Assembly (NCBI GenBank): GCA_038150265.1
Contig: JAYOTF010000040.1
Span: 1-29,721 of the forward strand
Reading direction: 5' to 3'
DNA: 29,721 nt
Origin: Deltaproteobacteria bacterium
GTDB taxonomy: Bacteria > SAR324 > NAC60-12
Part shown: one piece after another, positions 25,731 through 29,721 of the stretch
Position numbering within the stretch: position 1 is the first letter of the stretch
How the letters are laid out: each line of letters begins with the position of its first letter
Position numbers and translations under genes: made by a program
The notes under the pieces: model-generated
The model's input: only the letters and a program-made list of their open reading frames with translations
Databases searched by the model: none
What the model was told of the DNA's origin: nothing

Positions 25731-26423
25731 GAGGTTCAGGCTGATTCCCGTGATCCAATCGGCGTCGGGACTGGCGAGGAAGAAGAGCGCGGCGGCGATT
25801 TCGTCCGGTGTTCCCAGCCGTCCTCGGAGTCCGGACTGCTCCAGCCGTTTCAAGATGGGCTCCTCAAACCGAGTCACCATGGGGGTCTCCACTGGCCCCG
25901 GAGAGATCGCATTGACGCGAATGCCCGCCTCTGCCCACTCCCGGGCCAGGTACCGTACCAGATTTTCCACCCCGGCCTTGGCCACGGCGTAGGCGGCTCC
26001 GGAGAGCGCACTTCCGCCATTGTGGGCGTTGGTGGAGCCGATGAAGAGCGCGGAAGCGTACGGAGAGGTGAGGAGCGGCTGAGCGTGCTTGGCAATGAGG
26101 AAGCAGGAGGTGAGGTTCACCTCCAGCAGGGAGTGCCAGTCGGCCAGTGAGGTGTGGGCCAGGTCTCCGGTCTGGGTCTTGCCGACGCAGTGCACCAGCG
26201 TCTGCAGCGAGCCGTGCTGGTCCTGAATTTCAGCGCAGAGCTGAACCAGGGCCGCCTCGTCGGTGCAATCGAGGGAGTGGTAGTGGGTGCAGGCATCCGG
26301 ACCCGTGGGAGACAGGTCGGCGCCAATGACGCAGGCGCCGGACTGGTGAAAGCGGCGGGCCACCGCGGAGCCGATGCCCCCTGCGGCTCCAGTGATCAAG
26401 ACCGTGGAAGGGGCAGTGGACAT
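25707..26423 (-). CDS. Short-chain dehydrogenase/reductase (SDR)
   Basis: TGAAGGIG, EVNLTS, catalytic YAVAK, IRVNAISPGPVET, ITGISLNLSGG. Confidence 0.92.
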   Translation of the reverse strand: MSTAPSTVLITGAAGGIGSAVARRFHQSGACVIGADLSPTGPDACTHYHSLDCTDEAALVQLCAEIQDQHGSLQTLVHCVGKTQTGDLAHTSLADWHSLLEVNLTSCFLIAKHAQPLLTSPYASALFIGSTNAHNGGSALSGAAYAVAKAGVENLVRYLAREWAEAGIRVNAISPGPVETPMVTRFEEPILKRLEQSGLRGRLGTPDEIAAALFFLASPDADWITGISLNLSGGLVLR

Positions 26424-26441
26424 GCGGACTCCTGAGTGGGG

Positions 26442-27488
26442 TTAGAGGGCCTGAGCCGAAAGCAGCACCGAGGCCGGAAGCCCCTGTGGGCTCATCGCCT
26501 CAGGAATGGGAGTGTAGAGCGGATGCGGCACTCCGTGTGCGAAGCAGACGGCTTCCGGATCCGCGAGGATGGTTTCATCGCCAAAGGCCAACTCGATCTT
26601 GGCCCGACGCTCGGTCACCTCCAGGGGCTCAAACCCGATCTTGATGACCTCGCCTTCGAGGCGGGCCAGGAAGAACTGCGGGTCCTTGTCCAGCGAAAGG
26701 GCCTGAGGCGCCTCCGGAAGGAGGAGGCGTTCCTCCTGAGCCATCTCGAGGTCCACCCGCGTCACCTGCTGCATGTGCTCATCCCCAAGGACCAGAAAGC
26801 GATCATCGCCGGAAAAGACGAGGAATCGGGGTGCCTGGTCCAGTGGAAGCGCATAGCGCAGGGTTCCGGAGGGCAACTCGTAGACCCGTAGCGGGTCCGG
26901 CGCCTCTGAGACCAGCACCGCCAGCAGCGAGGCCTCGTTGTTGAGGGCAAAGTTGAGAACGGGGAGCCCGATGTTCAGGGTGAACCGTTCCTGCCCAGAG
27001 AGGTCGAAGGCGACAATGTGCCGAGACGCTTCCTGGTACCGGAGGCGCAGCTCCGTCCGGACCCGGTTGGGGTCCTGCGAGGTGAGCTTTCCGGTGTACG
27101 TGAGTTGGACATCGGCGGCCCCCTGGTTTTCCCAATAGAGGCAGTAGATGTCCTTGCGGGGCGGCTGGACGGTGCCCTGACCGGTTTGGGCGTCTGGCAG
27201 GCGGGTGCTGTAGCCCACCTCCTGCCCAAGGTGGTAGTGGACGTCAAAGTACACCGGCCCGGACGCCTGAAACTGGTAATCCAGTTGCTGGTCCGGATGA
27301 ACCGTGAAGCAGTTCTCTGCTCCCTGGCCCGCCTGCAGTTGATGCACGCCTGCCTGCTCCGGCCTCATGTCCTGCTTGGGGTCTGCAGGCCCAGCCGTCC
27401 AGGCCAACACGACCCCCACCGCCCCGGCGATCAACAGTCCTACCGCTTGAAGCATTTTCCCCCGTGGCTCACGAGATGGTTGCGTCAT
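26442..27488 (-). CDS. Uncharacterised exported protein: Cys/His-containing beta-sandwich-like domain plus partial beta-propeller
   Basis: N-terminal hydrophobic helix; ENCF...VYFDVHYH...YCLYWEN; propeller-like blades (FALNNEASLLAV, LVFSGDDRFLVL); C-terminal CFAHGVPHP. Confidence 0.75.
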   Translation of the reverse strand: MTQPSREPRGKMLQAVGLLIAGAVGVVLAWTAGPADPKQDMRPEQAGVHQLQAGQGAENCFTVHPDQQLDYQFQASGPVYFDVHYHLGQEVGYSTRLPDAQTGQGTVQPPRKDIYCLYWENQGAADVQLTYTGKLTSQDPNRVRTELRLRYQEASRHIVAFDLSGQERFTLNIGLPVLNFALNNEASLLAVLVSEAPDPLRVYELPSGTLRYALPLDQAPRFLVFSGDDRFLVLGDEHMQQVTRVDLEMAQEERLLLPEAPQALSLDKDPQFFLARLEGEVIKIGFEPLEVTERRAKIELAFGDETILADPEAVCFAHGVPHPLYTPIPEAMSPQGLPASVLLSAQAL

Positions 27489-27490
27489 GG

Positions 27491-28027
27491 CTAGTTCTTC
27501 ATGGAACCGCCCCCATGATGCATTTGGTGCATCTGGTCATGATCCATGGGGGTGGCGTTCATCATCACCGGAACCTGCACCGTGATTTCCGGGGCATGGC
27601 GGAAGCGCAGGGTGACCGGGTAGGTCTCTCCGGGCTGCGGTGCCTGCTTGAGCTTCATGAACATCACATGAAAGCCACCGGGTTTGAGCTCCGCCATCCC
27701 TTGAGCCGGGACCTCAATGGCGTCCACGGGGGCCATGTGCATCATGCCGTCCTTTTCGGTGACATTGTGGATTTCCGTCACTTCTGCCAGCGGAGAGCTG
27801 GCGGAGAGGAGGGCATCTGCCTGAGCCTCGTAGTTCATCAGGTGCATGTAGGCGGCACTGCTGGAGGCATTCGGCGGTGTGGCCCGGATCCAGGCCTCAT
27901 GGGCCTCCACGCCAGAGCCGTCCTGGGACTGGGCTCCTGCAGGAGGAATGAAGCCGAGGGTGAGGGCCACGAGCAGGGCCAGGGTCAGTTTGGAAAAATG
28001 AGTCATCATTGGAAATCTCAAAATCAT
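27491..28027 (-). CDS. Periplasmic copper chaperone PCu(A)C with Met/His-rich tail
   Basis: AWIRATPP, AAYMHL, EIH-x10-M...ELKPGGFHVMF (Hx10Mx21HxM Cu site), PVTLRF; tail MDHDQMHQMHH. True start may be 28009. Confidence 0.93.
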   Translation of the reverse strand: MILRFPMMTHFSKLTLALLVALTLGFIPPAGAQSQDGSGVEAHEAWIRATPPNASSSAAYMHLMNYEAQADALLSASSPLAEVTEIHNVTEKDGMMHMAPVDAIEVPAQGMAELKPGGFHVMFMKLKQAPQPGETYPVTLRFRHAPEITVQVPVMMNATPMDHDQMHQMHHGGGSMKN

Positions 28028-28032
28028 GAGGG

Positions 28033-28599
28033 TCAGAGGTCTTCCGCCAGGGTCGTGATGTCGTCCGCCATTTCCTCTGGCTCGGCATCCTGTCGGTACA
28101 GGCCCCGGAGTTCCCCCTCTCCATCGAGGAGGTAGACGTATCCGGAGTGGGCGACGAGGTAGCCGGCAGCGGTTTCGGTGCGGGTGTCCTTGGCAAAGAA
28201 GGCGCCGTATTGTCGGGCGACGGCCTTGAGTTCGTCGAGCGAGCCCGTCAGGCCGATGAAGCGAGGATGAAAGTAGGTCACGTATCCCTGCAGCTGTTCG
28301 GGGGTGTCGCGCTCGGGATCAACCGAAATGAAGAGGGGCTGCACCTGAGCCTCCACGTCCGGATCCAGCTCCTTGAGGGCCTGCTGCACCCGCACCATGG
28401 TGGTGGGGCAGATGTCCGGACACGCGGTGTACCCAAAGAAGAGGATCACCACCTGTCCCCGGAACTCGCTGAGCGAGACCGGACGGTCCAGAGAACTGGG
28501 GAGAGTGAAGTCTCCTCCCATGCTCCCGTATTCCTTCAGTTCAGCCTGAGCCGAGCTGGTCAGAAACAGGAATGCCAGCATGACGATGAATGTACGCAT
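28033..28599 (-). CDS. SCO1/SenC-family copper chaperone
   Basis: Signal peptide; GGDFTL, FFGYTACPDICP (CxxxC), FISVDPERDTP, GLTGS, YLVAHS (Cu-ligand His). Confidence 0.95.
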   Translation of the reverse strand: MRTFIVMLAFLFLTSSAQAELKEYGSMGGDFTLPSSLDRPVSLSEFRGQVVILFFGYTACPDICPTTMVRVQQALKELDPDVEAQVQPLFISVDPERDTPEQLQGYVTYFHPRFIGLTGSLDELKAVARQYGAFFAKDTRTETAAGYLVAHSGYVYLLDGEGELRGLYRQDAEPEEMADDITTLAEDL

Positions 28600-28601
28600 G
28601 A

Positions 28602-28671
28602 AACCCTCGTCGAGTCAGAGTGGTCCGGAGGCTTCTCCGGAAATCAGGATGATACGCAACAGAAGAGGGTC
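28602..28671 (-). promoter_or_regulatory. Predicted SD-sequestering mRNA structure between the leader ORF and SCO
   Basis: mRNA GACCCUCUUC (28671-28662, overlapping the leader stop) can pair 9/10 with GACGAGGGUU (28611-28602, SCO RBS); it encloses a perfect hairpin UCCGGAG-AAGC-CUCCGGA (28641-28624). Confidence 0.55.
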
Positions 28672-29023
28672 AGGCGGGGGGACCTCGGGAAGGAGGAATG
28701 GCAAAGAAGGAAGTGAGAAACGGGACGGCCTGAGGCGGCTGGGTGAGCCAGGCTCTGGCGTCTGGTAGGCGCAGGGTCAGGGCATGAGGGAGCAGGGAGC
28801 ACCCAGCAGAGTGGCCCTGGTGCAGGAGCACGCATTCGGTGTCTTGCTCCACCTGCTGCTGGTGAGACTGGTGGTGCGACTCGGCGTTGGCATGACGATG
28901 GGTGTGTGCGCCCGAGGCTCCAATCGGAAGGTGGTGGACCCAGTGAGGGGGCAAGGCCGCAGTCCAGTGCAGCAGCGCGACAATCAGCAGCTGGGCAACA
29001 GAGGAAATGCGAGGTGGGAGCAT
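28670..29023 (-). CDS. DUF2946-like His-rich exported leader protein ending in RGPP (candidate arrest peptide)
   Basis: N-terminal hydrophobic segment, His-rich middle, ECVLLH, Pro-rich linker, C-terminal PPSRGPPA-stop; 70 nt upstream of SCO. Confidence 0.7.
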   Translation of the reverse strand: MLPPRISSVAQLLIVALLHWTAALPPHWVHHLPIGASGAHTHRHANAESHHQSHQQQVEQDTECVLLHQGHSAGCSLLPHALTLRLPDARAWLTQPPQAVPFLTSFFAIPPSRGPPA

Positions 29024-29149
29024 GCCGGCTCAGACGGAGTGGATCAGCAAAAACGGTCCCCCACTCTATCGGAGCCACCGGCAACCCGCAAGCAAAGAGC
29101 CTTGCCCGGAGAGTGTCCCAGGCGGCTCTGTGCTGCCTCTCAGCCTGGG

Positions 29150-29377
29150 TCAGGAGTACTCGATGAACAGCTCTTCCGGAAGCTCAGACCAACGCGAGTG
29201 CACGTTCACTTTCCTGGGGCCGCCGTCTGCCGGGTCCATCTGAACCCGCTCGATGTTCCCTCCACGGTTCAGGTACTCCTGCACTGCAGCGTCGACTTCT
29301 TCTTGCCGAACCTCCGGAACCTTGGTTCCAGAAAAAACGACAGGGCGTTGATTGAAGGTGGTTGCGTACTTTCTCAT
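29150..29377 (-). CDS. Small protein (75 aa) with a SutA-like RNA-polymerase-binding motif
   Basis: ATG at 29377 after AAGGA; EEVDAAVQEYLNRGGNIERV resembles the Pseudomonas SutA core (AMEEFLxRGGKVQEI). Confidence 0.6.
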   Translation of the reverse strand: MRKYATTFNQRPVVFSGTKVPEVRQEEVDAAVQEYLNRGGNIERVQMDPADGGPRKVNVHSRWSELPEELFIEYS

Positions 29378-29721
29378 GAGAAATCCTTGCTCCAGAATAA
29401 GACCTCGCTGTTGACCTCCATGGCTCTCTTGAAGGAGCCCCTCTCGGCGGTCTGACCCAGCGGATCGGTCATCAAAATAACGGTTTCGTGCTCCCGCCTG
29501 GGGAAGCTTTTGTGAGGAGGCGGTTGTGCCTCCATGGCGCACGGCGCAAACACAGCCTAGGGGCTCCCGGGGTACAAGAACAAATGAGATTGCGGTCGAT
29601 TTTGGAGCGTATTTTTCTAAGTTTCAGTTTTTGATGGATTTATTTTGGATGTGTGATTGCGGTCGAGGTTGGTTCGGGATTTAAAGCCCCACGGTTTGTA
29701 CCAAAAAAAAACCGGCACGCA

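Follow-up and report, generated by a model that had tools for sequence, protein, structure and literature searches.

What does a short open reading frame (ORF) with a candidate ribosome-arrest motif at its end do in front of two copper-chaperone genes? The question is raised by contig JAYOTF010000040.1 of a SAR324 bacterium (assembly GCA_038150265.1), whose 29,721 nucleotides (nt) are the stretch analysed here and are called the window below. On its minus strand, to which all gene and motif coordinates in the window refer, an ORF of 117 amino acids (aa) plus stop at 28670..29023, here named X, encodes a His-rich protein with an export signal and the C-terminal end RGPPA, and is followed by genes for the copper chaperones SCO and PCuAC. 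An initial annotation, which had placed this ORF correctly, proposed that a ribosome stalled at RGPP frees the ribosome-binding site (RBS) of SCO. We propose, with a probability of roughly 60%, that X is a cis-acting, co-translationally exported, metal-sensing arrest leader of the type known from CruR and CutF. Such a leader would tune the production of SCO and PCuAC after transcription has started, and we hold its class with more confidence than the details of its action.

X is a gene conserved in one SAR324 family

A six-frame search with a profile of ten members detected relatives of X in 17 of the 88 SAR324 genomes. All the genomes that carry X belong to one family (f1), in which, the genome of the window excluded, it is found in 16 of 44 genomes; the six other families gave 0 of 43. 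The homologues span six genera and their reading frames are free of stop codons in G+C-rich and in A+T-rich genera. In the alignment of the ten members M1, L17, H27, V29, H30, C64, R113, P115 and P116 are invariant, and G114 is nearly so. X shares 60% identity with its counterpart in the closest species and SCO shares 94%. X is a real gene, and its conservation is more than chance would give.

We nevertheless considered that X might be an open frame arisen by chance in G+C-rich DNA, with coincidental motifs. The rarity of X in databases would fit, since a single-sequence search returned only 2 proteins among 5.8 billion clusters and 3 matches among 1.84 billion representatives (of these, a 405-aa repeat protein is probably a false match), and so would the outcome of a sigma-70 promoter scan of 26300-29721, which found none, including upstream of X. 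However, full-length and stop-free homologues in 17 genomes from six genera of differing base composition, with their invariant residues and constant neighbours, and the 18 called proteins that a profile search gives, refute this reading, to which we attach next to no weight. The family had emerged only through the six-frame genome searches. In 185,579 species genomes a pattern scan picked up no more than five loci, none of them a new member, and X has no NCBIfam match. Small ORFs ending in R[AG]PP number 35 in the genome of the window, and X alone among them also has an N-terminal hydrophobic segment.

X is also represented in RNA libraries. Contigs from three salt-marsh libraries map to X, to PCuAC and to the junction of X with SCO; one of them runs from the 3' end of X through the intergenic region into the start of SCO. 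The three metatranscriptome runs gave one to three short contigs each, at a depth of about 2, which show presence in RNA libraries only. The related strain found there keeps RGPP, with only synonymous changes adjoining it (places 28676 and 28688).

Conserved parts of the X protein

Seventeen copies of X were examined for motifs, an eighteenth being cut by a contig end. An N-terminal hydrophobic segment, which had been taken for an export signal, is present in all 17; its maximum Kyte-Doolittle value over 15 residues is 1.80 in the X of the window and lies between 1.70 and 2.89 across the copies. AlphaFold2 predicted only one helix, at residues 4-23 (28955..29014), which could be a signal peptide or a signal anchor. 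The predicted local distance difference test score is 81-95 over the first 20 residues and about 50 over the rest, and X is predicted to be unstructured after this helix.

Directly after the helix stands PPHWVHHL (residues 25-32, 28928..28951), and a His-rich stretch follows at residues 34-54 (28862..28924). The motifs HWVHH, HTHRH and HHQSH listed in the initial annotation are all there, and the whole protein has 13 His. H27, V29 and H30 are kept in ten of ten aligned members, and HxVHH occurs in 11 of the 17 copies. A pair of Cys in a C-x10-C arrangement had been reported as well; both residues, C64 and C75, exist in ECVLLHQGHSAGC, but only C64 (E-C-x-x-L, codon at 28832..28834) is invariant, whereas C75 is not conserved and is missing from the closest species. 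Elsewhere in the family some members have a second Cys 4, 5 or 11 residues further along, and others have none.

Near the end of the protein, where X itself has RGPPA-stop, all 17 copies carry R-[G/A]-P-P, and 1-8 residues come after it. In the window its codons CGA GGU CCC CCC (28676..28687) are the presumed ribosome-arrest site, and R113, P115 and P116 are invariant. From the Cys to the Arg of this motif there are 48-52 residues in every one of the 17 copies, and 49 in the X of the window. The spacer that separates them (residues 65-112, 28688..28831) is kept in length and poorly in sequence: 18 of 43 residues between positions 68 and 110 are identical to those of the closest species, with no change in length, and the corresponding figures are 9/9 for PPHWVHHLP, 13/15 for SHQQQVE..ECVLL and 6/7 for PSRGPPx. 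Eleven copies have RGPP together with HxVHH and 9-18 His, and the remaining six have RAPP with 3-5 His and without HxVHH; the copies within this split are close kin and were not counted as independent events. Since the RAPP members have only 3-5 His, the His cluster is not essential to the family.

RGPP and RAPP are described in PMC12992588 as the strongest RAPP-like arrest cores, depleted from proteomes, with RGPP the tetrapeptide most avoided in bacterial proteomes and found at the C-termini of small secreted products of upstream ORFs (uORFs). The same source reports that secreted RGPP/RAPP uORFs are enriched upstream of PCu(A)C genes, that those adjoining metal genes have conserved Cys/His, and that RAPP/RGPP proteins of Streptomyces lividans, some of them upstream of copper genes, were submitted to an in vitro arrest assay and termed arrest peptides. 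X has this layout, with R-[A/G]-P-P near the C terminus, a localisation signal and a co-directional gene downstream. In the long ORFs of the genome RGPP was observed 17 times in comparison to 44.7 expected, a depletion that is indicative only, coming from a crude set of 4401 ORFs of at least 200 aa that includes spurious frames. Likeness to CruR, CutF and the RGPP/RAPP peptides suggests that RGPP stalls the ribosome translating X, that the Cys/His site may sense copper and that the stalling would control the genes downstream.

The conservation of X could also be that of a protein which chiefly works as such, namely a membrane-anchored, His-rich periplasmic copper ligand that hands metal on to SCO or PCuAC, with RGPP as a structural or slow-translation feature of no regulatory role. 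Indeed, the strict conservation of PPHWVHH, SHQxQ and poly-His exceeds the need of a bare stalling leader, PCuAC here also has a His/Met-rich tail, and in one genus the gene lies between SCO and PCuAC as that of a third subunit might. On the other hand, no fold is predicted beyond the helix, the spacer drifts but keeps its length, and a motif that is avoided in proteomes and typical of uORF C-termini (PMC12992588) here always stands 1-8 residues from the end. In addition, the RAPP members have few His, and CutF protein was reported to be undetectable in vivo (PMC9973294). We consider a working protein distinctly unlikely, and keep the arrest leader as our preferred reading.

Copper-chaperone genes beside X

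An operon with SCO and PCuAC had been proposed, and Pfam identified both genes downstream of X. The first encodes an SCO1/SenC copper chaperone of 188 aa with a signal peptide (28033..28599; PF02630, E 1.6e-44) and the second a PCuAC copper chaperone of 178 aa with a His/Met-rich C-terminal tail (27491..28027; PF04314, E 1.6e-37), which is the sole match genome-wide. At 13 readable loci of the family, the gene after X encodes SCO in 4 cases and PCuAC in 8, all above the Pfam cut-offs. The thirteenth locus (L029:701-1189, minus strand), from an A+T-rich relative, has a 162-aa His/Glu-rich exported protein located 293 nt after X, with a weak cupredoxin-like match (22.1 bits for a cut-off of 27). 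In genus g11 the order is SCO-X-PCuAC. Between X and the gene after it lie from about 34 up to 293 nt across the family, and 107-293 nt in most members.

Two side observations concern these genes. The tail of PCuAC (MDHDQMHQMHHGGGSMKN, 27491-27550) is rich in His and Met, and comparable tails are found in the PCuACs of relatives. One genome (G045; 7.3 Mb, 5% contamination) has two near-identical SCO-X(-PCuAC) copies on contigs L026 and L031, which could be a duplication or two strains binned together.

Proposed action of X

In our proposal, the N-terminal helix would bring nascent X to the Sec translocon. When the ribosome reaches R113-G-P-P116, peptide-bond formation would slow, and Cys64, 49 residues back, would then be at or past the periplasmic mouth of the translocon together with the PPHWVHH/poly-His cluster. 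Binding of copper at this exported Cys/His cluster could alter the dwell time of the ribosome at RGPP. A ribosome halted one codon before the stop would cover the CCCUC near the stop as well as the first part of the intergenic region, which would keep the SCO RBS open, and the parked ribosome may also keep Rho off the RNA. Control of the downstream genes would go either through RBS unmasking, as in CutF of Rhodobacter capsulatus, in which stalling is reported to melt a stem-loop lying over the RBS of the following gene (PMC9973294, bioRxiv 10.1101/2025.02.05.636593), or through the blocking of Rho, as in CruR.

As for polarity, our guess favours expression at low copper, because SCO and PCuAC supply oxidases with copper, the genome of the window encodes COX2 and the CruR regulon is described as serving the copper supply to heme-copper oxidases (PMC12914433).

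A more specific form of the proposal can be imagined for SAR324. The single Cys and the membrane-proximal PPHWVHH/poly-His would replace CxxC and report periplasmic copper, or a different metal that favours His (such as Ni, Co or Zn), directly to the synthesis of oxidase chaperones. The Pro and Ser codons that encode or flank the arrest motif would also supply the CCCUC anti-Shine-Dalgarno (anti-SD), so that arrest site and RBS mask would co-evolve and could shift in position (beyond the stop here, in the closest species 26-30 nt ahead of it) while remaining functional. Taken as a whole this elaboration is speculative, and we rate it as unlikely.

Evidence against an arrest leader: RNA pairing and family membership

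Several results weigh against the reading of X as an arrest leader. We infer stalling, metal binding and regulation for X and for its relatives alike, and the RNA-library contigs at X, with their depth of 2, may be DNA carry-over. The varied position of X, which in g11 lies between SCO and PCuAC, and an intergenic length of 34-293 nt make a single RNA mechanism common to the family unlikely. The other results concern the pairing at the SCO RBS and the relation of X to the family DUF2946.

In the initial annotation the anti-SD at the end of X was the whole switch: a ribosome stalled at RGPP would cover GACCCUC and thereby alone unmask the SCO RBS, which would be a special case of the arrest leader. 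The proposed anti-SD GACCCUCUUC (28662..28671), which overlaps the stop codon of X, is complementary to GACGAGGGUU (28611-28602) as stated, with 8 Watson-Crick pairs, one G-U and one mismatch. Seven contiguous pairs between the Shine-Dalgarno sequence (SD) and the anti-SD form in the predicted minimum-energy fold, and a perfect 7-bp hairpin, UCCGGAG-AAGC-CUCCGGA (28624..28641), does lie between the paired segments. The SD core GAGGG (28604..28608), 4 nt before the AUG of SCO, is predicted to be paired at 0.94-0.99 and to pair with the 24 nt that run from the stop to +20 with a probability of 0.95. A ribosome with Pro115 in the P site (footprint -12..+15) would cover 6 of the 7 pairs. The intergenic region of 70 nt (28600..28669) is within the range below 100 nt that the authors of the CutF study deemed compatible with their mechanism (PMC9973294). 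In addition, a third species of the genus (50% identity) has CCCUC 6 nt after the stop, paired with the SD in its minimum-energy fold.

Controls speak otherwise, and the SD/anti-SD pairing at X is not more than chance. The fold has a z-score of -1.33, with 19 of 200 shuffles folding as well. The SD duplex has an energy of -12.6 kcal/mol, against -10.7 ± 1.6 kcal/mol for 1000 dinucleotide shuffles of the upstream 82 nt, of which 13.2% are as good. Pro and Ser codons, rich in C/U, are naturally complementary to an SD rich in G. An SD paired at 0.94 or more is found in 19% of 299 other crudely called genes, the mean being 0.69. When the footprint is forced to be single-stranded, the pairing of the SD decreases only from 0.94 to 0.86.

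Nor does the pairing keep its position among relatives. The closest species has an identical SD side, but 4 of its 7 anti-SD bases are different, which gives two mismatches. The SD of that species is predicted to pair (0.96) with a CCCUC located 26-30 nt before the stop, outside the footprint, and the probability that it pairs with the footprint is 0.05. In the ensemble of the third species the share of SD pairing that falls to the stop-proximal region is only 0.26. In other genera the SD is unpaired with the end of X at four of six loci (G021, G012, G045 and G058), and pairs with it at 0.36-0.41 in G015 and at 0.58 in G017, whose start codon is uncertain. In the A+T-rich genera with 107-293 nt between the genes, the SD shows no pairing with the stop-proximal region. 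No compensatory change between SD and anti-SD could be counted, since the genus has only three members and the SD is invariant between two of them. These comparisons do not support a conserved anti-SD switch at the stop codon, and unmasking of the SCO RBS through GACCCUC alone seems rather unlikely.

A likeness of X to DUF2946-type leaders had also been pointed out. The prototype of this family is CruR (Bp2923) from Bordetella pertussis, with CXXC at 90-93 and RAPP at 139-142 (PMC9426467). With the Pfam hidden Markov model (PF11162) X scored 12.8 bits (E 0.21), below the gathering cut-off of 23.7, and formal membership fails; the six-frame search gave X 12.2 bits. CxxC, the copper sensor in CruR, is absent from X, in which the fourth position is Leu (C-V-L-L) and a single Cys is invariant. 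We also compared X with the DUF2946-type proteins of SAR324. In a profile-profile comparison hhalign aligned only 14 columns around RxPP, with a probability of 4.4%, and on a profile built from ten DUF2946 or near-threshold proteins of the phylum 3 of the 10 X members scored no better than 15-35 of 200 shuffles.

On the same profile the X of the window scores 11.9 bits, which none of 200 shuffles reached; for the ten X members, the score was matched by 0/200 shuffles in four cases, by 1/200 in two and by 4/200 in one. The Pfam match itself runs over residues 26-116 of X and positions 15-117 of the 117 in the profile. Four of the ten X members match DUF2946 at E of 1 or less, the best at 0.0038 and none above the cut-off, and the 18 database relatives of X have no precomputed Pfam domain. 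In a protein atlas, 4 of the 30 clusters nearest to X carry PF11162, on 12% of their members.

DUF2946 is found above cut-off in 5 of the 88 SAR324 genomes, and the DUF2946-type proteins of SAR324 include RGPP forms as well as DUF2946-SCO-PCuAC and DUF2946-PCuAC operons. In ten of these proteins the first Cys of CxxC precedes the Arg by 44-52 residues; the exact Cys register of X is ambiguous, because the profile alignment puts C64 on the second Cys of CxxC. As formal membership is lacking and the profile comparison is equivocal, we treat X as a diverged relative or a look-alike of DUF2946, which very probably works like that family. In another SAR324 family we observed tandem DUF2946-type genes (L042:938-1796, minus strand), one with RGPP followed by 8 residues and the other with a RAPPV end.

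The intergenic region and Rho

The region between X and SCO is better conserved than the pairing proposed for it. The last 56 nt of the intergenic region, on its 3' side, together with the opening 30 nt of SCO (28570-28655) differ from the closest species (L002:1860-1943) by only two substitutions outside the top of the hairpin; at the four-fold sites of SCO only 56 of 101 positions (55%) are identical. This comparison points to a cis-element under selection in the 3' part of the intergenic region or at the start of SCO. In the closest species the lower 5 bp of the hairpin are kept and its top and loop are replaced. The hairpin (28641-28624) was rejected as an intrinsic terminator since no U tract follows it. 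The start codon of SCO is predicted to lie in a small hairpin with a second in-frame AUG (probability of being paired 0.65-0.78).

An attenuation of the CruR type would be another special case of the arrest leader. In that event the paused ribosome would protect the last part of X and the RNA of the intergenic region from Rho, and relief of the pause, for example by copper, would lead to termination before SCO. The role of the conserved 3' part would then lie in RNA folding or in the loading of Rho, and not in masking the SD. This mechanism is the one published for CruR (PMC9426467), whose regulon serves oxidase copper (PMC12914433), and Rho is encoded in the genome of the window. The 70 nt between X and SCO contain 23 C and 16 G, the 3' 56 nt are far more conserved than the four-fold sites of SCO, and the long intergenic regions of most members (107-293 nt) suit Rho better than they suit a stop-proximal anti-SD. 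However, 70 nt is short for Rho loading and half of it is a stable hairpin, so that attenuation by Rho seems unlikely at X, the more general arrest leader remaining our preferred explanation.

Other features around the locus

A 348-aa ORF (26442-27488) begins 2 nt past the stop of PCuAC and, by virtue of this distance, probably belongs to the operon of X, SCO and PCuAC. A hydrophobic stretch lies at its N-terminus. No Pfam family was assigned to this ORF, which has only a faint match to a pyrroloquinoline quinone (PQQ)-associated beta-propeller repeat (E 0.11). Upstream of X, a 74-aa ORF (29150-29374) matches two models below threshold, the RNA-polymerase-binding domain of SutA (22.8 bits for a cut-off of 29.3) and the 'PFL_1563 small protein' model. 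Between this ORF and X there is a weak terminator-like hairpin followed by GACCGTTTTT, at 29074-29059. A search of Rfam over 27900-29400 found nothing relevant, the one match being a chance hit on the opposite strand (E 0.87).

Novelty and significance

The novelty claimed at first was overstated, as Sco/PCuAC genes behind DUF2946/CutF-like leaders, Cys/His sites and RGPP uORFs have all been published (PMC9426467, PMC9973294, PMC12992588). An export signal is reported for more than 95% of DUF2946 members, and their operons include ScoC and PCuAC (PMC9426467). The CutF survey sorts 5,334 CutF-like proteins into 29 clusters whose sites consist of Cys, of His or of both, and places PCuAC-like chaperones among the commonest genes downstream (PMC9973294). 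SAR324 is absent from the main text of PMC12992588. A search of the literature, supplementary lists lying outside it, found no paper linking SAR324 with PCuAC, DUF2946, an arrest peptide or CruR; SAR324 and 'cutf' occur together in a single paper, which concerns dissolved organic matter. The X cluster may already be tabulated in published supplementary lists. What is new here is the phylum, the sub-threshold subfamily, and a putative sensor that has one Cys with PPHWVHH and poly-His.

If our proposal is true, an abundant uncultured marine and estuarine lineage would set the supply of oxidase copper chaperones by a nascent-chain sensor and not by a transcription factor, and the principle of CruR and CutF would reach a further phylum and a sensor that has many His but a single Cys. 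Through the analysis an ORF overlooked by Pfam, NCBIfam and most gene callers also receives a name and a role that can be tested. Its 18 natural variants, RGPP with many His or RAPP with few, are material for dissecting how metal binding and arrest are coupled. A further lesson is that controls are needed before one trusts an SD/anti-SD pairing, however attractive, in coding DNA that is rich in G+C and in Pro codons. The practical value of the finding is modest.

Comparison with known systems

SecM of Escherichia coli, another arrest peptide, differs from X in several ways: it senses translocation activity and not a metal, has another arrest motif, precedes secA and has no sequence relation to X. 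ApdA, ApdP and the Streptomyces proteins share with X an R-G-P-P near the C terminus of a small protein that has a localisation signal. Both ApdA and ApdP differ from it in that they monitor protein export and control sec genes, not metals.

Like X, CutF combines a metal site with a C-terminal Pro motif, and in both cases the intergenic region behind is short, contains a stem-loop and has an SD for which base pairing is predicted; X would also share with it the Sec-exported nascent sensor. However, CutF has CxxxC and PP(P) where X has RGPP, and it controls a copper-detoxifying multicopper oxidase that copper turns on. In addition, the stem that would mask the SD at X is neither statistically distinctive nor conserved.

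CruR differs from X by its RAPP and CXXC, in comparison to RGPP and a single Cys, and X adds PPHWVHH and a poly-His stretch. The intergenic region is 162 nt in CruR and 70 nt after X. CruR controls a TonB-dependent transporter, whereas the genes behind X encode chaperones, and CruR belongs to Proteobacteria, whereas X belongs to SAR324. Nevertheless, both are small exported proteins that head a copper operon, and both have R-x-P-P a few residues from the stop. The spacing between CXXC and RAPP (45 intervening residues) is reported to matter for regulation by CruR (PMC9426467), and the distance from Cys to Arg is 49 residues in both proteins, from C90 to R139 in CruR (PMC9426467) and from C64 to R113 in X.

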